64,000 bases of DNA from a virus (lineage: Duplodnaviria; Heunggongvirae; Uroviricota; Caudoviricetes), in IMG/VR virus record IMGVR_UViG_2563366947_000002; one strand, written 5' to 3'. Each line of letters starts with the position of its first letter. Positions within the stretch are counted from its first letter, which is position 1. Made by a program: the position numbers and the translations under genes. Of this stretch, positions 29,659 through 38,919 are shown piece by piece. The notes under the pieces are model-generated. The model saw only the letters and a program-made list of their open reading frames with translations, searched no databases and was not told the origin of the DNA.

Positions 29659-30426
29659 TCACCCCATAGATATCGAGGTTTCGGTAATAATACGTTTTGC
29701 GTCCAACTCCCATGCTGTGATCACGTCTGCAATCACACTTATCGGCGCTTGTGTGGCATAAATACGCTCTTCTCCAATTGGTGCTGAAACATCCGTAAAG
29801 CCGACTTCTTTGGCATCCTGTATCGAGCAAATCAGCGGGACCGGGACACGAACAAGGTGAGTGGTTGCTTCAAATTGTGTACCTGTCATCAGGCGAAGCC
29901 GTGCGCCCAGCGAATTACACATCAGACTCATGGTCGCTTTATCAGTTGCCATTAACGTAACGTCATACGTCAGAATGGCCTGGGTGTATTCCAGTTCTGC
30001 TAAAGGCATTCCGGTATCCGGTTCGCAAAAACTGGCTACTTTTTTGCGGTCAATCTGCTGATCATCGTTGATATAATTGATATCCATAGTGCGTGAGATA
30101 TTGACCAGGGGGAGAGCATCCCGGTTAATGTTCTGGTTTTCAGGTTTTCTCCCTTGCCCGGCATTTGCGCGACGAACTGCTTTAAGAAACTCGATCGCAT
30201 TGTCGAAACGGGCCACATAGACACGCTCTGCTGGTGGACGATTCAGGAATGACGCAAAGCGTTTTTCTTCCGGCGCGGGGGCCACAAGTAAGATATCAGA
30301 AAAAATGTTGCTGATTAGCGTCGCAAACGCGTTATCCACGTTTTCAAAGCCCGTGGTCTGGAATTTTCCTGTGCGTGAGGTTTGCCATTCACCTGTTCGC
30401 GCCAGGAGGGTTTTATTTGAAGTCAT
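29659..30426 (-). CDS. hypothetical tail/baseplate protein
   Basis: 255-aa ORF in the same operon. Confidence 0.4.
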   Translation of the reverse strand: MTSNKTLLARTGEWQTSRTGKFQTTGFENVDNAFATLISNIFSDILLVAPAPEEKRFASFLNRPPAERVYVARFDNAIEFLKAVRRANAGQGRKPENQNINRDALPLVNISRTMDINYINDDQQIDRKKVASFCEPDTGMPLAELEYTQAILTYDVTLMATDKATMSLMCNSLGARLRLMTGTQFEATTHLVRVPVPLICSIQDAKEVGFTDVSAPIGEERIYATQAPISVIADVITAWELDAKRIITETSISMG

Positions 30427-31226
30427 TCGATCACTCCGTTTTGAGTCGTATCAAAATTCCTGGCAGGTATGCAGTAGTAAAGCGAACCAACATGCTGTGT
30501 GCCGTAGCTAAAAATACGGTGCACGTACCACCAGCGGCGCGCTACGCCGTTTACCATCTCTTCATTCCATTCAAGAATTGAGCCGACGGGGACGTTATTT
30601 GCTGCAATACGCAGAATCAGAACATCATCGGTTAAGCCATCCTGCTCACCGTCTGCGTCAATCGCATGGAAAGAGTCACGCCCGTCAGGGTTATCCAGCA
30701 CATAAACGATTTCAGGTTCCTGGTAAGTCAGTTCGCGTTGGTTGTTATCCAGTTCAGTGAATGACTCTTCTCCTGTTTCGTCGCTGACTACCCCATATGT
30801 GCCAACATCTGGTCGATATAAGAGAGCCTGAAACGCGTCTGGGCTGGATTCAATAATCAGCATCCAGTCTGCGCGGATTTGGTCGTTAAAGGCTTTATGC
30901 CCGTTATAGCGTGCTTTTAGCTGTGGAGTTGATTCTCTGCCAGCCAGGGAAGGTGGAAGTATGGCTATATCTGATTCGCCAGCATCCGGAGTAAGGCCAC
31001 CGTTGCTATCAGCAAAATTATCATGGCTATCAGCTTTGGCGGCGGGTTGCTCTTCCAGAATGCTGAATGAATCCGAACCGGTATTGCCATGTTCCGGCGC
31101 GCCTCCTGCATTCACTTCAATCGGCGCTGGCGTTTCTCTCTGCGTGCTGTCATGTTCTGACTCCTTACTTGCCAGGTTTGCATCGTCAGCAAACCATTCG
31201 TCAAAACGGCCCATAAGCATCCTCAA
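30423..31226 (-). CDS. hypothetical acidic protein
   Basis: 267-aa Asp/Glu-rich ORF, first gene of the operon. Confidence 0.4.
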   Translation of the reverse strand: MRMLMGRFDEWFADDANLASKESEHDSTQRETPAPIEVNAGGAPEHGNTGSDSFSILEEQPAAKADSHDNFADSNGGLTPDAGESDIAILPPSLAGRESTPQLKARYNGHKAFNDQIRADWMLIIESSPDAFQALLYRPDVGTYGVVSDETGEESFTELDNNQRELTYQEPEIVYVLDNPDGRDSFHAIDADGEQDGLTDDVLILRIAANNVPVGSILEWNEEMVNGVARRWWYVHRIFSYGTQHVGSLYYCIPARNFDTTQNGVIE

Positions 31227-31376
31227 AGGTCGATCTGTCAGGTATCGAAAGGAAGATTTTCGGGAGATTGTGATTTTGGATGAAGGAGGGGAAATTCATA
31301 AAATGCACTTGCGCACAGTGCGACGGTGCGCTATAGTTATGGCATTCGGTAATCATCACGGAGGATCAAATGACTA

Positions 31377-31679
31377 ATGACCAAAAAAATTAACATAAAG
31401 GATTTCAGGGATGCGTGGCTTGATGATTTTTTTGAATTTTCAACACCACATAGAAAGATACCTCCTGATATTCATATGACATTGTCACGGAAGTTGGACA
31501 TTATCAATGCCGCAACTACCTGTAAGGATTTAAGATCACCACCAGGCAATCGGTATGAGGAACTGTCAGGGAAGCTAAATGGCTATTCATCAGTAAGGGT
31601 GAATAAGCAATATAGGTTAATTTTTAAGTGGGTTAACGGAAAGGCCGAGGACTTGTATCTCGACCCTCACAAATACTAA
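31377..31679 (+). CDS. higB: RelE/HigB-family toxin
   Basis: 100 aa; C-terminal YRLIFKWVNGKAEDLYLDPHKY resembles the HigB family; GGAGG RBS; followed by an HTH gene. Confidence 0.65.
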   Translation: MTKKINIKDFRDAWLDDFFEFSTPHRKIPPDIHMTLSRKLDIINAATTCKDLRSPPGNRYEELSGKLNGYSSVRVNKQYRLIFKWVNGKAEDLYLDPHKY

Positions 31680-31749
31680 AACAGATACCCGGTTACGGAC
31701 CGGGTTCTGACCAGAGTCCACTTAATACGCACGCTAGTAAGGGCAAAAA

Positions 31750-32088
31750 ATGAAACAGGCAACCAGAAAACCGACGACCGTAGGTGATATCCTGCTGTAC
31801 GAATACCTGGAGCCATTAGAGCTGAAGATCAACGAGTTAGCAGAAATACTTCATGTTCATCGTAACACCGTAAGTGCTCTTGTTAATAATAATCGTAAGC
31901 TAACGATGGATATGGCATATCGCCTGGCAAAAGCATTCGATACTTCTGTAGATTTTTGGATTAATCTTCAGACCGCAGTAGATCTGTGGGAAGTCGAAAA
32001 TGATATGCGCGTTCAGGAAGAGTTAAGTCGTATCAATACTGCTGAAAAATTTATTTCTCAGCGTAACCTGAATAAAAAAGCAGCCTGA
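31750..32088 (+). CDS. higA: HigA-type HTH antitoxin
   Basis: 112 aa; XRE-type HTH (INELAEILHVHRNTVSALVNN) and FWINLQ motif typical of HigA. Confidence 0.65.
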   Translation: MKQATRKPTTVGDILLYEYLEPLELKINELAEILHVHRNTVSALVNNNRKLTMDMAYRLAKAFDTSVDFWINLQTAVDLWEVENDMRVQEELSRINTAEKFISQRNLNKKAA

Positions 32089-32144
32089 TATAGTAAAACA
32101 CATACAAAAAGCCCACTTAGCAAGTGGGCTTTCCTTTGTAATTA

Positions 32145-32504
32145 ATGAACATTAAACCTATCCGTACAGAACAAGATTATGAGGCCGCACTGCGTGCGGT
32201 CGAACCGATGTTCGATAACGAACCGGAAATGAATACTCCGGAAGGTGATTTCTTTGAGGTTATGAGTCTTCTCATTGAGGAGTACGAGAAGAAACATTAC
32301 CCAATTGAGCCACCATCACCTATTGAGGCCATTAAATTCCGTATGGAACAGCAAGGGCTGACCGTGAAGGATCTGGAACCGGCAATTGGTAAGTCAAACC
32401 GTGTTTACGAAGTGCTTAATGGGACACGAAATTTGACGTTACCTATGATTCGTCGTTTACATGCCCAGTTTGGTATTCCACTGGAAAGTCTGGTTGGTGT
32501 TTAA
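32145..32504 (+). CDS. second HigA-family HTH protein (C-terminal HTH type)
   Basis: 119 aa; C-terminal IGKSNRVYEVLNGTRNLTLPMIRRLHAQFGIPLESL matches the E. coli HigA architecture. Confidence 0.55.
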   Translation: MNIKPIRTEQDYEAALRAVEPMFDNEPEMNTPEGDFFEVMSLLIEEYEKKHYPIEPPSPIEAIKFRMEQQGLTVKDLEPAIGKSNRVYEVLNGTRNLTLPMIRRLHAQFGIPLESLVGV

Positions 32505-32554
32505 GTTTGGCGGTCTGGAGGACCGCTTTTTATCTAAAATAAAAATTAGAAGGT

Positions 32555-33304
32555 TTGATAGCTTGTATGGGCAAAAATTCATCAACAGAAAACACATCTA
32601 CAATTGACTCAATCAAGGGCACAATGGATGAAGCCATAAAAGATAAATTATTTAATAAATTATTTGCATATGTGGTGGTTTCATTTTTTGTCGTTAATTG
32701 GCAAGAAATACTAATTTTGTTTAAATCTAAATATGATATATACACAACACTGTCTATAGTATGGGTAGGGGATAAATATCAAATCCCTTATTTTGGAACC
32801 TTCATTGTATCTCCGTTTTTAGCTCACTTTGTTATGCCGTTTATATATGGCACTATTGCGTCCATAGTAATGCCTTATATTACTATGCGTATATCAAAAC
32901 TAACTGGTAGAAATTATGCGCAAATAAGATACATTGACCATGAATTTGACTCAGAAGAGAAAGCAAGAGTAAAGGCGTTACTGAGAAACCTAAAGAAAAA
33001 AGAGGAAGAGCTTTTAAAATTAGAGGAACAAATAGAAGGTCAACAAAAAATACTGAATACAATCGAAGAAAAGAAGAGAGAGATTGAGAGTGCCAGAGTG
33101 GCTCTGTATCACGGTATAAAAGTAATTGTTGATATATATAAAGCAAAAGATAAAAGGATTTCCACCAAAGAAGATTTTGCCGATTTATTAAAAGCAATTG
33201 AAGGAAGTGATTTTTATAAAGACACTGGGTTGTGGGGTATTAATAATTTAATAGATGACGTGGAGACAATATATGAGTCTCAATCGACATCAAAGGACAA
33301 GTAA
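32555..33304 (+). CDS. membrane protein with two TM helices and a C-terminal coiled coil
   Basis: 249-aa ORF in a visibly AT-rich tract; start ambiguous (TTG 32555 or ATG 32567). Confidence 0.5.
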   Translation: MIACMGKNSSTENTSTIDSIKGTMDEAIKDKLFNKLFAYVVVSFFVVNWQEILILFKSKYDIYTTLSIVWVGDKYQIPYFGTFIVSPFLAHFVMPFIYGTIASIVMPYITMRISKLTGRNYAQIRYIDHEFDSEEKARVKALLRNLKKKEEELLKLEEQIEGQQKILNTIEEKKREIESARVALYHGIKVIVDIYKAKDKRISTKEDFADLLKAIEGSDFYKDTGLWGINNLIDDVETIYESQSTSKDK

Positions 33305-33337
33305 TATAAAAGGCGGGATAACCGCCTTTGTTGTAAA

Positions 33338-34856: not shown

Positions 34857-35184
34857 AACAAAGCCTCTCAGTCATAACCTGGGGGAAACTGTATGCAGGG
34901 TGTGAAATGCGAGAAACAGACAGGCCACCAGTTCAGGGGGATGTGGTTCATAAATTCCCTCACTGGTGACAAGTGACTTTCATTAATCTTTATGCGGGGG
35001 CCAGCTTCATTTGCTGGCATTAGATTAAAAATTAAACGGAGTGAATGACATGGATGTTATCTTCGAATTATTAATGCTAATTGATCTGTTTATGAACGCT
35101 TCATTGACCACTCAAATACTCGCGTCAATATTTTTGTTACTCTTCTACCTGGTATTGAGGGAGTTAACAAAGCTACTAATGTGA

Positions 35185-37231: not shown

Positions 37232-37849
37232 TCATTTTTGTCGGATCTTTTCCAGCATATTTAATTCATTATCACTTTCTGCTGCTGAGACGGTTGGCCT
37301 CACATTTCCGAAATATTTCCTGTGAGACTCATGACTTATGTATTCACCGACAGTTTCATTCTTGAATATACGAATTTGACATATGCGAGATCCAACAATA
37401 AGTTCTACAGGGCTATTCCCATGATTAAATAACTCTAAAGATATACAGCCTCTGTACCCTGGTTGTATCATGGTATTTAATGAAAGACCAAGCCTTGTAT
37501 AGCTGCTTCTGGACAATACATCAGCGTAGCAATCTGGTGGCAAACAAACATATTCTAATGTTGTTGCCAGTACCACTTGATTCGGGTAAACAATGAATCT
37601 ATCCCCAAGATCTCTCCTTGTTTCCTGGAAAAATGTTCTGATTGGTTGATGAGTATCATTGTTTTTAGAGGGAATTAACTCTATTGACGGCTTCCTTGTC
37701 ATAATAGACACTAAAAAATCGTAACCAAGTCTAAGGTCTATGGTGAAGTTCCCAATTTGGTTTTTATTTAGAAGAGGTTCAATGAACAACGACTCAGGTT
37801 CTTCTGATTCATAATATTGCAGCAATTCAGCTTTGCTTAGGAGATTCAT
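37232..37849 (-). CDS. dCTP deaminase (Dcd) family protein, dUTPase fold
   Basis: Aligns with E. coli Dcd (SRSSYTRLGLSL vs GRSSLARLGLMV; PGYRGCISLELFNHG vs PGWSGCIVLEFYNSG). ATG at 37849 overlaps the upstream stop (ATGA), GGAG RBS. Confidence 0.7.
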   Translation of the reverse strand: MNLLSKAELLQYYESEEPESLFIEPLLNKNQIGNFTIDLRLGYDFLVSIMTRKPSIELIPSKNNDTHQPIRTFFQETRRDLGDRFIVYPNQVVLATTLEYVCLPPDCYADVLSRSSYTRLGLSLNTMIQPGYRGCISLELFNHGNSPVELIVGSRICQIRIFKNETVGEYISHESHRKYFGNVRPTVSAAESDNELNMLEKIRQK

Positions 37850-38919
37850 TGTGCACTCCATTTTTCAAGAATCATTACGTTTCGAATCGATTTTTCAACC
37901 AAATCATTTATAGTTTTTTCTATGGCTTCTTTTGACAACCCAGACCATATACCCGTAGGTTTTTCCCATTCAGAGCATAAGTACTGCCAGCTGCTGTTAA
38001 TAAAAGCATGCATTTCATTGTGGTCGCGAATAACAAAAGGACGCACATTATCAAAAGCTGATTTCACATCAAGCAAAGGTGTCGGCAATGTCAAACAAGG
38101 AGAAATAATCTGCCCACCCTTATGTAAGGCTGATATCACAGCATTGAACATGCCAACAACTGGATTTTCCACTTTGTTCAAAAAGTCGCTTACAATTTTA
38201 ACTCTATCTTCTGTGGATGGGTGAGTATAGCTTGCAGGATGAGAGCCAGCTAATTTGTATAAGAAATCTACCCCACTTTTTCCAATAAATTGGGCACTAA
38301 ATAGATCTGCAAAATATTCTCTGCAATGATTTATCCAAATAACATCAGGTAGATTACTCCATTCTGGTCCAGGAAGTGTGCCTTTGTCCTTGGAACGATA
38401 GTTAAGACAGGCAAGCTCAGAAATACCTTTGCTAATATCAACGAAATGTCCCAATTCGTGATATAAAGGTATAGAGCATAATGGTCGTCTTCTGTACATT
38501 TCAGGTAATGAAATCTGGATTAATTCGACCTCGAATTTGACATTTAAAACTTCATCAAATAAAGAATACAAATTCTTGTTTACAGACTTAAAATAAAACC
38601 CATGCATATCTGGAGATAGGGCAGTGGTTATAAGTGTTTTTTCACTTATCCATTTTTTACAGGCATCATTTAAGCAATAAACAATCTCGTAGGGAATTTT
38701 CTTTGTAGTACTGCCAGTGAAAAAATTAACTGCATCGGTGATAAAAAAAGTACAATCCGCAATTATTTTATCAGCAACATTCACATGGTTTTCATAGAGC
38801 TTATCTACCGCTTCTTGTAGAACAGCAAGATATTCATGCATGTCTTTAGAAAAATAGGGAGATTCTGATATCTCCCTTAGCTTATTTCGAACTAATGTAA
38901 GTTGTGTAAATGCAAGCAT
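37846..38919 (-). CDS. HExxH zinc-metallopeptidase-like protein (ImmA/IrrE-like?)
   Basis: 357 aa; HELGH motif then EYFADLF; start overlaps the upstream stop (TAATG). Confidence 0.55.
   Translation of the reverse strand: MLAFTQLTLVRNKLREISESPYFSKDMHEYLAVLQEAVDKLYENHVNVADKIIADCTFFITDAVNFFTGSTTKKIPYEIVYCLNDACKKWISEKTLITTALSPDMHGFYFKSVNKNLYSLFDEVLNVKFEVELIQISLPEMYRRRPLCSIPLYHELGHFVDISKGISELACLNYRSKDKGTLPGPEWSNLPDVIWINHCREYFADLFSAQFIGKSGVDFLYKLAGSHPASYTHPSTEDRVKIVSDFLNKVENPVVGMFNAVISALHKGGQIISPCLTLPTPLLDVKSAFDNVRPFVIRDHNEMHAFINSSWQYLCSEWEKPTGIWSGLSKEAIEKTINDLVEKSIRNVMILEKWSAQ

Follow-up and report, generated by a model that had tools for sequence, protein, structure and literature searches.

A complete higBA module next to a probable orphan antitoxin of a displaced toxin-antitoxin module in a D6-like plasmid-prophage

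The locus considered here raises the question of why a single toxin gene should be followed by two consecutive antitoxin-type genes. It lies in a window of 64 kb (the whole stretch of DNA that was analysed) out of a replicon of roughly 90 kb, a phage D6-like, P1-related plasmid-prophage. Three open reading frames, ORF1 to ORF3, are present on the + strand (Table 1), opposite in strand to the flanking tail genes, whose P1 homologues are genes 7 and 25; in P1 itself, these two genes are separated by just 3 nt. The GenBank record of phage D6 describes a single toxin and then two 'HigA' antitoxins, and in the ST213 paper the locus figures just as the higA-higB system of D6. An earlier note, made from the letters of this DNA, left three readings of the third gene side by side: part of a tripartite arrangement, orphan antitoxin, or regulator of the downstream membrane protein. 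The evidence set out below makes it probable that the locus consists of a complete higBA module and a beheaded, decaying orphan antitoxin from an unrelated toxin-first type II toxin-antitoxin (TA) module.

Table 1. Features of the higBA-ORF3 locus, with positions counted along the window
Feature	Position	Strand	Evidence
Swapped-in higBA cassette (promoter/operator, higB, higA, terminator), 861 bp	31277..32137	+	Homology breaks against NZ_CP028198 (L001)
Putative higBA promoter with operator	31304..31337	+	Inverted repeat and conservation with the chromosomal locus
higB, ORF1, PF05015 HigB-like (GraT-like) toxin, 100 aa	31377..31679	+	Profile and structure-sequence matches
Stem-loop within the higB-higA spacer	31687..31705	.	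31677-31752 fold, dG -20.8, z -2.5
higA, ORF2, N-terminal-HTH HigA antitoxin, YbaQ paralogue, 112 aa	31750..32088	+	TIGR02607, HTH_3 and PDB matches
Terminator-like hairpin closing the cassette (11 bp, 5 G-C pairs)	32108..32132	.	Terminator scan, both strands
Orphan antitoxin, ORF3, K-12-type HigA, 119 aa	32145..32504	+	K-12 HigA alignment, HTH_3, antitoxin of relatives
Terminator-like hairpin and T-tract 3' of ORF3	32509..32534	+	Terminator scan and folding
Optional cargo gene, phrog_8191, N-terminal hydrophobic segments and coiled coil	32567..33304	+	phrog_8191, E 4.6e-112
Tail-side hairpin, terminator-like, dividing the island from the convergent P1 gene 25 homologue	33309..33329	-	Terminator scan

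ORF1 and ORF2 form a complete higBA pair, in agreement with the earlier note, which had described a RelE/HigB-family toxin, an XRE-type HigA and a toxin-first gene order. ORF1 matches the PF05015 HigB-like_toxin profile over its whole length (positions 1-91 of 91, E 4.4e-35, 120.5 bits with the cutoff at 27) as well as phrog_3066 (E 3.7e-37), and it recovers GraT (PDB 6F8S_B, E 2.8e-14) and the Proteus HigB (E about 2e-3). ORF2, located directly 3' of higB on the same strand, is recognized by the TIGR02607 HigA model (E 7.9e-30, 102.5 bits, cutoff 47.7), carries HTH_3 at residues 16-70 (E 7e-11) and matches both YbaQ (PDB 2EBY, E 1e-53; 85/112 residues, or 76%, identical to the E. coli protein) and GraA (6F8S_A, E 5e-9). 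A single solved complex, GraTA 6F8S, is matched by the two proteins together, ORF1 through chain B and ORF2 through chain A. By its family, ORF1 is presumed to be a ribosome-dependent mRNA endonuclease. The residues His54 and Tyr91, which we take to be catalytic in Rts1 HigB, align with Glu and Pro in ORF1, and GraT likewise has Glu at the His54 position. No defence-system match is assigned to the pair, because the PADLOC profiles gave none for ORF1 and only weak generic HTH matches for ORF2 (E of at least 1e-4). Judged from its sequence, the pair looks functional, and both the pair and the orphan are of already known kinds. By homology, an addiction or anti-phage role, as the earlier note had suggested, is plausible; most likely, higBA would serve the D6-like plasmid-prophage in post-segregational killing or as an abortive module.

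On E. coli chromosomes, ybaQ is paired with a toxin gene, and these two genes stand as a unit flanked by ybaP and copA. ORF1 is 80% identical to this toxin, and the plasmid higBA is a paralogue of the chromosomal locus. The two share the toxin-first order, the promoter palindrome and the promoter core, whereas the higB-higA spacer measures 70 nt, with a stem-loop, in the window and 35 nt on the chromosome. Compared with its PF05015 relatives, namely Rts1 (Proteus) HigBA, V. cholerae HigBA-1, P. putida GraTA and the chromosomal RelE/ParE-toxin-ybaQ locus, the window module is distinguished by being borne on a plasmid-prophage and inserted inside a tail-gene operon. Chromosomal YbaQ, being near-universal, might even blunt the addiction module of the plasmid.

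The expression signals of the pair are contained in the cassette. The putative higBA promoter, with hexamers chosen by eye, comprises a -35 element TTGCGC (31309-31314), a 17-nt spacer and a -10 element TATAGT (31332-31337). It was not flagged by the sigma-70 scan because its -35 element matches 3/6 positions, below threshold; it is proposed because the chromosomal toxin-ybaQ locus retains both an 18-nt core, TGCACTTGCGCACAGTGC, and the same -35/17 nt/-10 geometry. A 9-nt inverted repeat, GCGCACAGT/ACGGTGCGC (31311-31319 / 31323-31331), is situated inside the -35/-10 spacer, and this palindrome is a candidate operator through which the module may regulate itself. At the other end, the hairpin closing the cassette is an 11-nt perfect inverted repeat located 12 nt 5' of the ORF3 ATG, with dG -17.9 and z -4.0, and none of 200 shuffles folds as well. 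Its + strand T-tract is imperfect (CCTTTGTAAT), and read-through from the higBA promoter is therefore possible. In the proposed mechanism, an autoregulated promoter within 31277-32137 would drive the toxin and its HigA, and the transcript would stop at this intrinsic-terminator-like hairpin.

The second HTH protein was correctly assigned by the earlier note to the other HigA architecture, because ORF3 aligns full-length with the K-12 HigA chain 5IFG_B. Its N-terminal domain is helical and its C-terminal domain an HTH; HTH_3 matches only the C-terminal half (residues 63-115, E 3.8e-5), scoring 24.1 bits where the cutoff is 23. The phmmer alignment with E. coli K-12 HigA (5IFG_B/5YCL_A) covers residues 6-112 at about 30% identity (E 1.2e-7). 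For all three ORFs, the scores behind the family assignments exceed chance by a wide margin. Full-length fold matches are to K-12/Shigella HigA only (Foldseek E about 1e-3), with a high rmsd because the domain orientation is uncertain; the underlying single-sequence AlphaFold model is moderate (pLDDT 75.6, pTM 0.47) and is used as supporting evidence only. The same two-domain antitoxin layout is found in the K-12/Shigella HigBA (YgjN/YgjM; PDB 5IFG, 5YCL, 6KML), although the K-12 HigA is 138 aa long and the sequence relation is distant. K-12 HigB, in turn, is matched by the PF09907 toxin that partners ORF3 in relatives, whereas the toxin, promoter and operator of such a module are missing here. 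A search for a PF09907 toxin or a remnant of one gave none within the 64-kb window, and its absence from the remainder of the replicon is based on complete relatives. As PF09907 HigB is absent upstream of ORF3, the window therefore holds half of a K-12-type module.

The other half is present in closely related plasmids. In NZ_CP028198 (L001), a PF09907 HigB (E 3.3e-34) lies 3 nt 5' of a protein identical to ORF3 at 118/119 residues; the same toxin stands directly 5' of the ORF3 counterpart, again 118/119 identical, in 21 sibling D6-like plasmids. The L001 toxin and ORF3 match both chains of E. coli HigBA 5IFG/5YCL. Beyond L001, the PF09907 toxin is also seen in L007, L092-L094 and L096, and in L007 it forms a pair with an ORF3-type antitoxin in another context. 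Across Proteobacteria, a PF09907 toxin occurs directly 5' of the ORF3 homologue in 72/79 genomic loci, and a PF05015 toxin beside it in 0/80. The orphan reading of the earlier note is thereby borne out: the partner is there in siblings and in most genomic loci, and here it has been replaced.

The replacement is visible at nucleotide level. Homology between the window and L001 is intact over 30401-31276, then breaks, and resumes at 32138, so that the cassette ends 7 nt 5' of the ORF3 ATG and stands in place of 383 bp (promoter and PF09907 higB) of the sibling plasmids. ORF3 is stranded because its own promoter/operator and toxin have been replaced by the cassette. In L001, a palindromic operator overlaps the promoter of the PF09907 higBA; a search of the window for this palindrome, TCCCAGCATGGGAC/GTCCCATGTTGGGA, gave 6 matches against 4.6 expected, each with at least two mismatches, which is chance level. 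The Shine-Dalgarno (SD) sequence of the ORF3 counterpart sat in the 3' end of the PF09907 toxin gene in the two-gene plasmids, and the SD:anti-SD energy of ORF3 is -2.4 kcal/mol compared with -5.9 in the two-gene context, the background mean being -2.1. SD-less translation of ORF3 is possible. The hairpin 3' of ORF3 (32509-32534) marks where the PF09907 higBA operon originally ended. In all likelihood, ORF3 is expressed at a low level and not required. The earlier occupant of the site would have been a K-12-type HigBA (PF09907 toxin and C-terminal-HTH HigA), whose promoter, operator and toxin would have been ousted by the incoming cassette, with the antitoxin left behind. This would be an ordinary, well-documented kind of addiction-module turnover and no new kind of system.

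The plasmid census comprises 91 cassette carriers and 21 plasmids of the PF09907 type. Cassette identity is at least 99% in 79 carriers, 95-99% in 8 and 90-95% in 4, with most values between 99.0 and 99.5%; since the cassette differs by less than 1% in most carriers (79/91), the swap looks recent. ORF3 is full-length in 18 of the 91 carriers and truncated in 73 (80%), with the HTH half gone. The truncations fall mostly after nt 182, leaving a 66-codon stump, and there are at least three end points (nt 182, 106 and 90). The 21 plasmids with the PF09907 toxin and the 18 cassette plasmids with full-length ORF3 do not overlap by accession. Public plasmids display all turnover stages at one hotspot: the two-gene module, the precise swap with an intact orphan, and then the deletion of the DNA-binding HTH half.

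The ORF3 protein is highly conserved, with a dN/dS of about 0.05. Purifying selection on the orphan was considered from this value and rejected: the differences are concentrated in the 3' half, and those alleles are identical to alleles of the two-gene plasmids, so the dN/dS signal predates or bypasses the swap. Given the recent swap and the shared alleles, the intactness and low dN/dS of ORF3 do not discriminate between the readings. An intact, conserved ORF3 in 18/18 plasmids of the full-length state could mean continued use.

Such continued use is the substance of the alternative that survives best, although it is unlikely: ORF3 would be a functional orphan that neutralizes the PF09907 HigB of incompatible D6-like/P1-like siblings, conferring cross-immunity or anti-addiction. 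The cognate toxin is indeed carried by siblings of the same replicon cluster, rep_cluster_1704, and its close homologues were found on D6-like plasmids only, never on a chromosome, in 5426 E. coli genomes. A carrier of the new higBA might in that case supplant plasmids of the old type and leave the host alive, while imposing a toxin that the siblings cannot counter, a scenario to which we likewise give little credence. If true, it would explain why the new type has apparently taken over, with 91 plasmids to 21, and the later decay of ORF3 in 73/91 carriers, which would fit a relaxation once the competitor had become rare; the intact ORF3 in all 18 plasmids of the full-length state would also be in line with it. 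Against this, ORF3 has neither a promoter nor an SD and is preceded by a terminator, its HTH half is lost in 80% of the cassette carriers, and its conservation is accounted for by recency and recombination. Chromosomal ccd, acting against F-plasmid ccd, is an example of anti-addiction. Like the orphan antitoxins and anti-addiction modules covered by a review (PMC7354431), ORF3 is an antitoxin that persists although its toxin is gone, and competing replicons still spread that cognate toxin; unlike them, it resides on the mobile element itself, 3' of a different TA and without evident expression signals. The plasmid series offers a natural system for the study of retained antitoxins in the competition of incompatible phage-plasmids.

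A role of ORF3 as the transcriptional regulator of the membrane/coiled-coil gene 32567-33304, another reading raised by the earlier note, is very unlikely. ORF3 and this gene are neighbours on one strand, 62 nt apart, ORF3 carries an HTH domain, and both occur together in the window, D6, L001, L003, L005 and L006. However, a terminator-like hairpin separates them, L093, L094 and L095 have ORF3 but no membrane gene, and L004 together with some 70 further plasmids keeps the membrane gene although the ORF3 HTH has been deleted. The membrane gene is also absent from all 80 genomic ORF3 loci, whose downstream neighbours are mutually unrelated and include no conserved third gene. The gene, for which neither Pfam nor PADLOC gave a match and whose alleles differ among D6, L004 and L005, is unlinked to ORF3 and outside the TA system.

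The least credible reading adds ORF3 to the ORF1/ORF2 system as its third member, whether as second antitoxin, regulator or accessory factor. The adjacency of three genes on one strand might suggest this, as might a match of ORF3 to the N-terminal part of PD-Lambda-2_B, which belongs to a defence system of three genes; the reading fails on the recombination junction and terminator that split ORF3 from higBA, on the lack of any PF05015 neighbour in the 80 loci, on the self-contained chromosomal pair, on the occurrence of higBA with only the 66-codon stump in 73 plasmids, and on the absence of both the PD-lambda-2B peptidase domain and a C component. The preferred reading, a complete higBA beside an orphan of other origin, thus corrects a tempting misreading of the D6 annotation.

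The resemblance to PD-lambda-2 is nevertheless sizeable at the profile level, the L001 toxin matching PD-Lambda-2_A (E 1e-41) and ORF3 matching positions 1-119 of the 402-position PD-Lambda-2_B profile (E 3.8e-43). PD-lambda-2B is a HigA-HTH::ImmA/IrrE-peptidase fusion of about 400 aa that is itself toxic (Vassallo et al. 2022, PMC9519451), and anti-phage defence by PD-lambda-2 needs a third component related to a P4 phage antitoxin (PMC9519451). The homologues of ORF3, in contrast, measure 114-147 aa. Membership in PD-lambda-2 was rejected, ORF3 having no peptidase Pfam match and component C being absent. TAC/HigBAC, with its SecB-like chaperone, and paaR-paaA-parE likewise consist of three small adjacent same-strand genes with a HigB-type toxin, but the third gene here, ORF3, encodes no chaperone or dedicated regulator and derives from another TA. 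Among further plasmids, those of Shigella dysenteriae show a partial toxin match, in a stretch that reaches the end of the record.

The three open reading frames described in the earlier note lie exactly where it had placed them, all on the forward strand, and its family calls proved right: a HigB-like toxin (ORF1), HigA (ORF2) and a second HigA of the other architecture (ORF3). The Pfam profile PF05015 HigB-like_toxin covers ORF1 end to end (E 4.4e-35), and phrog_3066, 'toxin of TA system', matches it as well (E 3.7e-37); ORF2 matches NCBIfam TIGR02607 HigA (E 7.9e-30) and carries a Pfam HTH_3 domain at residues 16-70. Both align with the GraTA complex of P. putida (6F8S_B for ORF1, E 2.8e-14; 6F8S_A for ORF2, E 5e-9), the match of ORF1 to Proteus/Rts1 HigB being weaker, and ORF2 is closely paralogous to YbaQ of E. 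coli (2EBY, E 1e-53, 85/112 identical). ORF3 finds no match in NCBIfam and a marginal HTH_3 in its C-terminal half only (residues 63-115, scoring 24.1 bits where the cutoff is 23). It aligns over its full length with HigA of E. coli K-12 and Shigella (5IFG_B, 5YCL_A; E 1e-7), a family whose HTH is C-terminal, unlike that of Proteus HigA (PMC7984235). For an AlphaFold single-sequence model of ORF3 (pLDDT 75.6, pTM 0.47), the best four structure matches are K-12/Shigella HigA, the only full-length ones, the remainder covering the HTH portion only. ORF1/ORF2 and ORF3 belong to two different TA lineages.

Features of the locus and of other parts of the window
Feature	Position	Strand	Description
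ORF1 (higB)	31377-31679	+	100 aa
ORF2 (higA)	31750-32088	+	112 aa
Cassette-end hairpin	32108-32132		11 bp, G+C-rich, dG -17.9 kcal/mol, z -4.0
ORF3	32145-32504	+	119 aa
phrog_8191 protein gene	32567-33304		245 aa
Intergenic gap	34857-35184		328 bp
dCTP deaminase-like protein	37232-37861	-	209 aa; PF22769, E 1.3e-30; no PADLOC match

At the equivalent site, the sibling plasmid pGMI14-002_2 (NZ_CP028198; L001) carries just two genes: a 100-aa PF09907 HigB_toxin (E 3.3e-34; K-12 HigB 5IFG_A, E 1e-7) and, starting three nucleotides after it, a 119-aa protein identical to ORF3 at 118 of 119 residues. Among 80 ORF3-homologous loci surveyed in different bacterial species, with antitoxins of 114-147 aa, a PF09907-type toxin ends a few nucleotides upstream of the ORF3 homologue in 72 of the 79 assessable, and a PF05015 toxin adjoins none; in another P1-like plasmid (L007) such a pair sits next to the c1 repressor. 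Given that this pairing is general, a PF09907 toxin must have come in together with ORF3, which makes two genes the ancestral state of the site and three genes the derived one. Homology between the window and L001 extends to 31276 (97.8%) and resumes at 32138 (99.4%), 7 nt upstream of the ORF3 ATG. Between these junctions the window holds 861 bp (promoter, higB, higA, terminator) and L001 383 bp (promoter and PF09907 higB).

The cassette that came in is autonomous. Chromosomes of E. coli have, between ybaP and copA, a two-gene unit made up of ybaQ and a RelE/ParE toxin with 80% identity to ORF1; K-12 and most other strains keep ybaQ without the toxin. The plasmid and chromosomal promoters share a conserved 18-nt core (TGCACTTGCGCACAGTGC) and the same geometry (-35 TTGCGC, 17 nt, -10), and an inverted repeat within the promoter spacer of the window cassette, GCGCACAGT/ACGGTGCGC, is a plausible HigA operator. 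A hairpin closes the cassette.

Of the 5426 complete genomes of E. coli, 4854 have the chromosomal ybaQ (76% identical to ORF2), mostly as an orphan antitoxin, with the adjacent toxin in roughly 400 of them (examples: L089 1567-2246, APEC IMT5155; L090 1508-1849, a K-12 derivative). Host YbaQ might cross-neutralise the plasmid HigB, weakening addiction. A strong Shine-Dalgarno, GGAGG (31360-31364), has optimal spacing to an ATG at 31370 that is out of frame with higB; its distance to the ATG of higB itself is 12 nt. From 31370 runs a mini-ORF of 7 codons (MTNDQKN*) that overlaps the start of higB at 31377 (region 31360-31393), an arrangement that may dampen the translation of the toxin or couple it. 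A diverged relative (L006 2232-2944, NZ_CP085065) retains the two ATGs. Its left flank is strongly diverged and 11 of its 100 HigB residues (24 nt) differ from those in the window, while its HigA protein is identical (6 synonymous nt), as would fit a recombination breakpoint that lies between the two genes.

The swap left ORF3 stranded, its promoter, operator and Shine-Dalgarno all replaced. The old promoter with its 14-nt palindromic operator (L001 2586-2629) is gone, the palindrome having no above-chance match across the window, and the GGAG once located in the 3' end of the old toxin has given way to the terminator tail. SD:anti-SD pairing at ORF3 falls from -5.9 kcal/mol in the two-gene context to -2.4 in the window, where the background averages -2.1. 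Nowhere in the 64 kb of the window is there a PF09907 toxin or a remnant of one, and the 24 plasmids with a PF09907 toxin do not overlap with the 18 in the window's state. Of the readings proposed earlier for ORF3, that of an orphan antitoxin is supported, the PF09907 partner having been replaced and the expression signals lost; a tripartite system and a regulator of the downstream membrane protein are not.

Among PLSDB plasmids, 112 have any ORF3 match, near-full-length in 39. The PF05015 higBA cassette is carried by 91 and the PF09907 toxin, at >=80% coverage, by 21. Full-length ORF3 accompanies the cassette in 18, leaving 73 (by subtraction) with a truncated copy, cut nearly always after nt 182 to a 66-codon stump without the HTH (e.g. 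L004). Within 5426 complete E. coli genomes, ORF3 and its PF09907 toxin are never chromosomal and occur on plasmids only. Most probably ORF3 is a relic with little expression, heading for deletion. The commonest truncation point (window 32324-32326, ORF3 codon ~60; L004 3001-3200) lies near an apparent recombination between 5'- and 3'-half alleles, allele differences among plasmids beginning around 32300, and the 66-aa stump has a PHROG family to itself, phrog_10398 (66-position profile).

ORF3 is intact in all plasmids of the window's state, with pairwise dN/dS of ~0.05. As evidence of selection, both observations are uninformative, because the allele differences cluster in the 3' half, the alleles there are the same or almost the same as in two-gene plasmids (window = L001; L095 = L093/L094; L003 1 nt from L096), and the cassette, with which the 5' half mostly co-travels, looks recent. 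Cassette divergence is below 1% in most carriers (79/91 at >=99%), leaving too little time for point mutation to disrupt a neutral 360-bp ORF. A residual cross-immunity role for ORF3 against sibling plasmids still carrying the PF09907 toxin is a much less likely alternative to the relic.

A dedicated regulatory role of ORF3 over the phrog_8191 gene is rejected, since a terminator-like hairpin separates the two, the gene is absent from ORF3-keeping plasmids (L093, L094, L095) and present in L004 despite deletion of the HTH, and it adjoins ORF3 homologues at 0/80 genomic loci. The product of this cargo gene, unmatched in Pfam and PADLOC, has a hydrophobic N-terminal region and a coiled coil; presence varies among D6-like plasmids independently of the resident toxin, and several diverged alleles occur (L002 4368-5096, L004 3223-3951, L005 3424-4203). 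In PADLOC, the old PF09907 toxin matches PD-Lambda-2_A (E 1e-41), and the match of ORF3 is to positions 1-119 of the 402 in PD-Lambda-2_B (E 3.8e-43). PD-lambda-2B is, however, an HTH-peptidase fusion, itself toxic, and the system requires a third component related to a P4 phage antitoxin (PMC9519451). Both features are absent here, and the old module is thus a plain K-12-type HigBA, related to PD-lambda-2 and not a member of it.

The cassette higBA would be transcribed from its own autoregulated promoter, with HigA holding HigB in check. HigB-family toxins are ribosome-dependent mRNases (PMC11980606, Table 1), and plasmid loss or HigA-depleting stress would free the toxin; the outcome would be addiction to the plasmid and perhaps abortive infection as well. 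The ST213 study names this higA-higB locus of pYU39_89 a post-segregational killing system, apparently by annotation alone (PMC6799933). Both modules come from well-known families, and orphan antitoxins are common; what is of value is that the exchange of one TA module for another, and what followed, can be reconstructed clearly, rather than any novelty of the system.

The replicon is a phage D6-like, P1-related plasmid-prophage; D6 orf70-72 match the locus at ~95% identity, and matches also come from ~120 non-mobilizable plasmids, roughly 90 kb in size, whose hosts are E. coli, Salmonella and Shigella. Tail genes 7 and 25 of P1 have homologues on either side of the locus, which lies on the opposite strand. 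In P1 these genes are only 3 nt apart in the 26-25-7-24-6-5 operon, so the ~2.1-kb island is an insertion into a structural operon that is specific to this lineage. A second TA hotspot is suggested in the interval from the P1 gene-26 homologue to mat, where some D6-like plasmids carry a RelE/ParE-toxin and HigA pair (L004 5593-6164, L005 5847-6358) and the window has only an intergenic gap. The dCTP deaminase-like protein further along may be nucleotide-pool or defence-related cargo. Finally, Pasteurellaceae bacterium Macca (LVZB010000xx; L043, L045-L051) holds at least nine PF09907-HigB/ORF3-type pairs on several contigs, all 66% identical to the query and eight sharing one 91-aa downstream ORF; the module there appears to be part of a repeated element.
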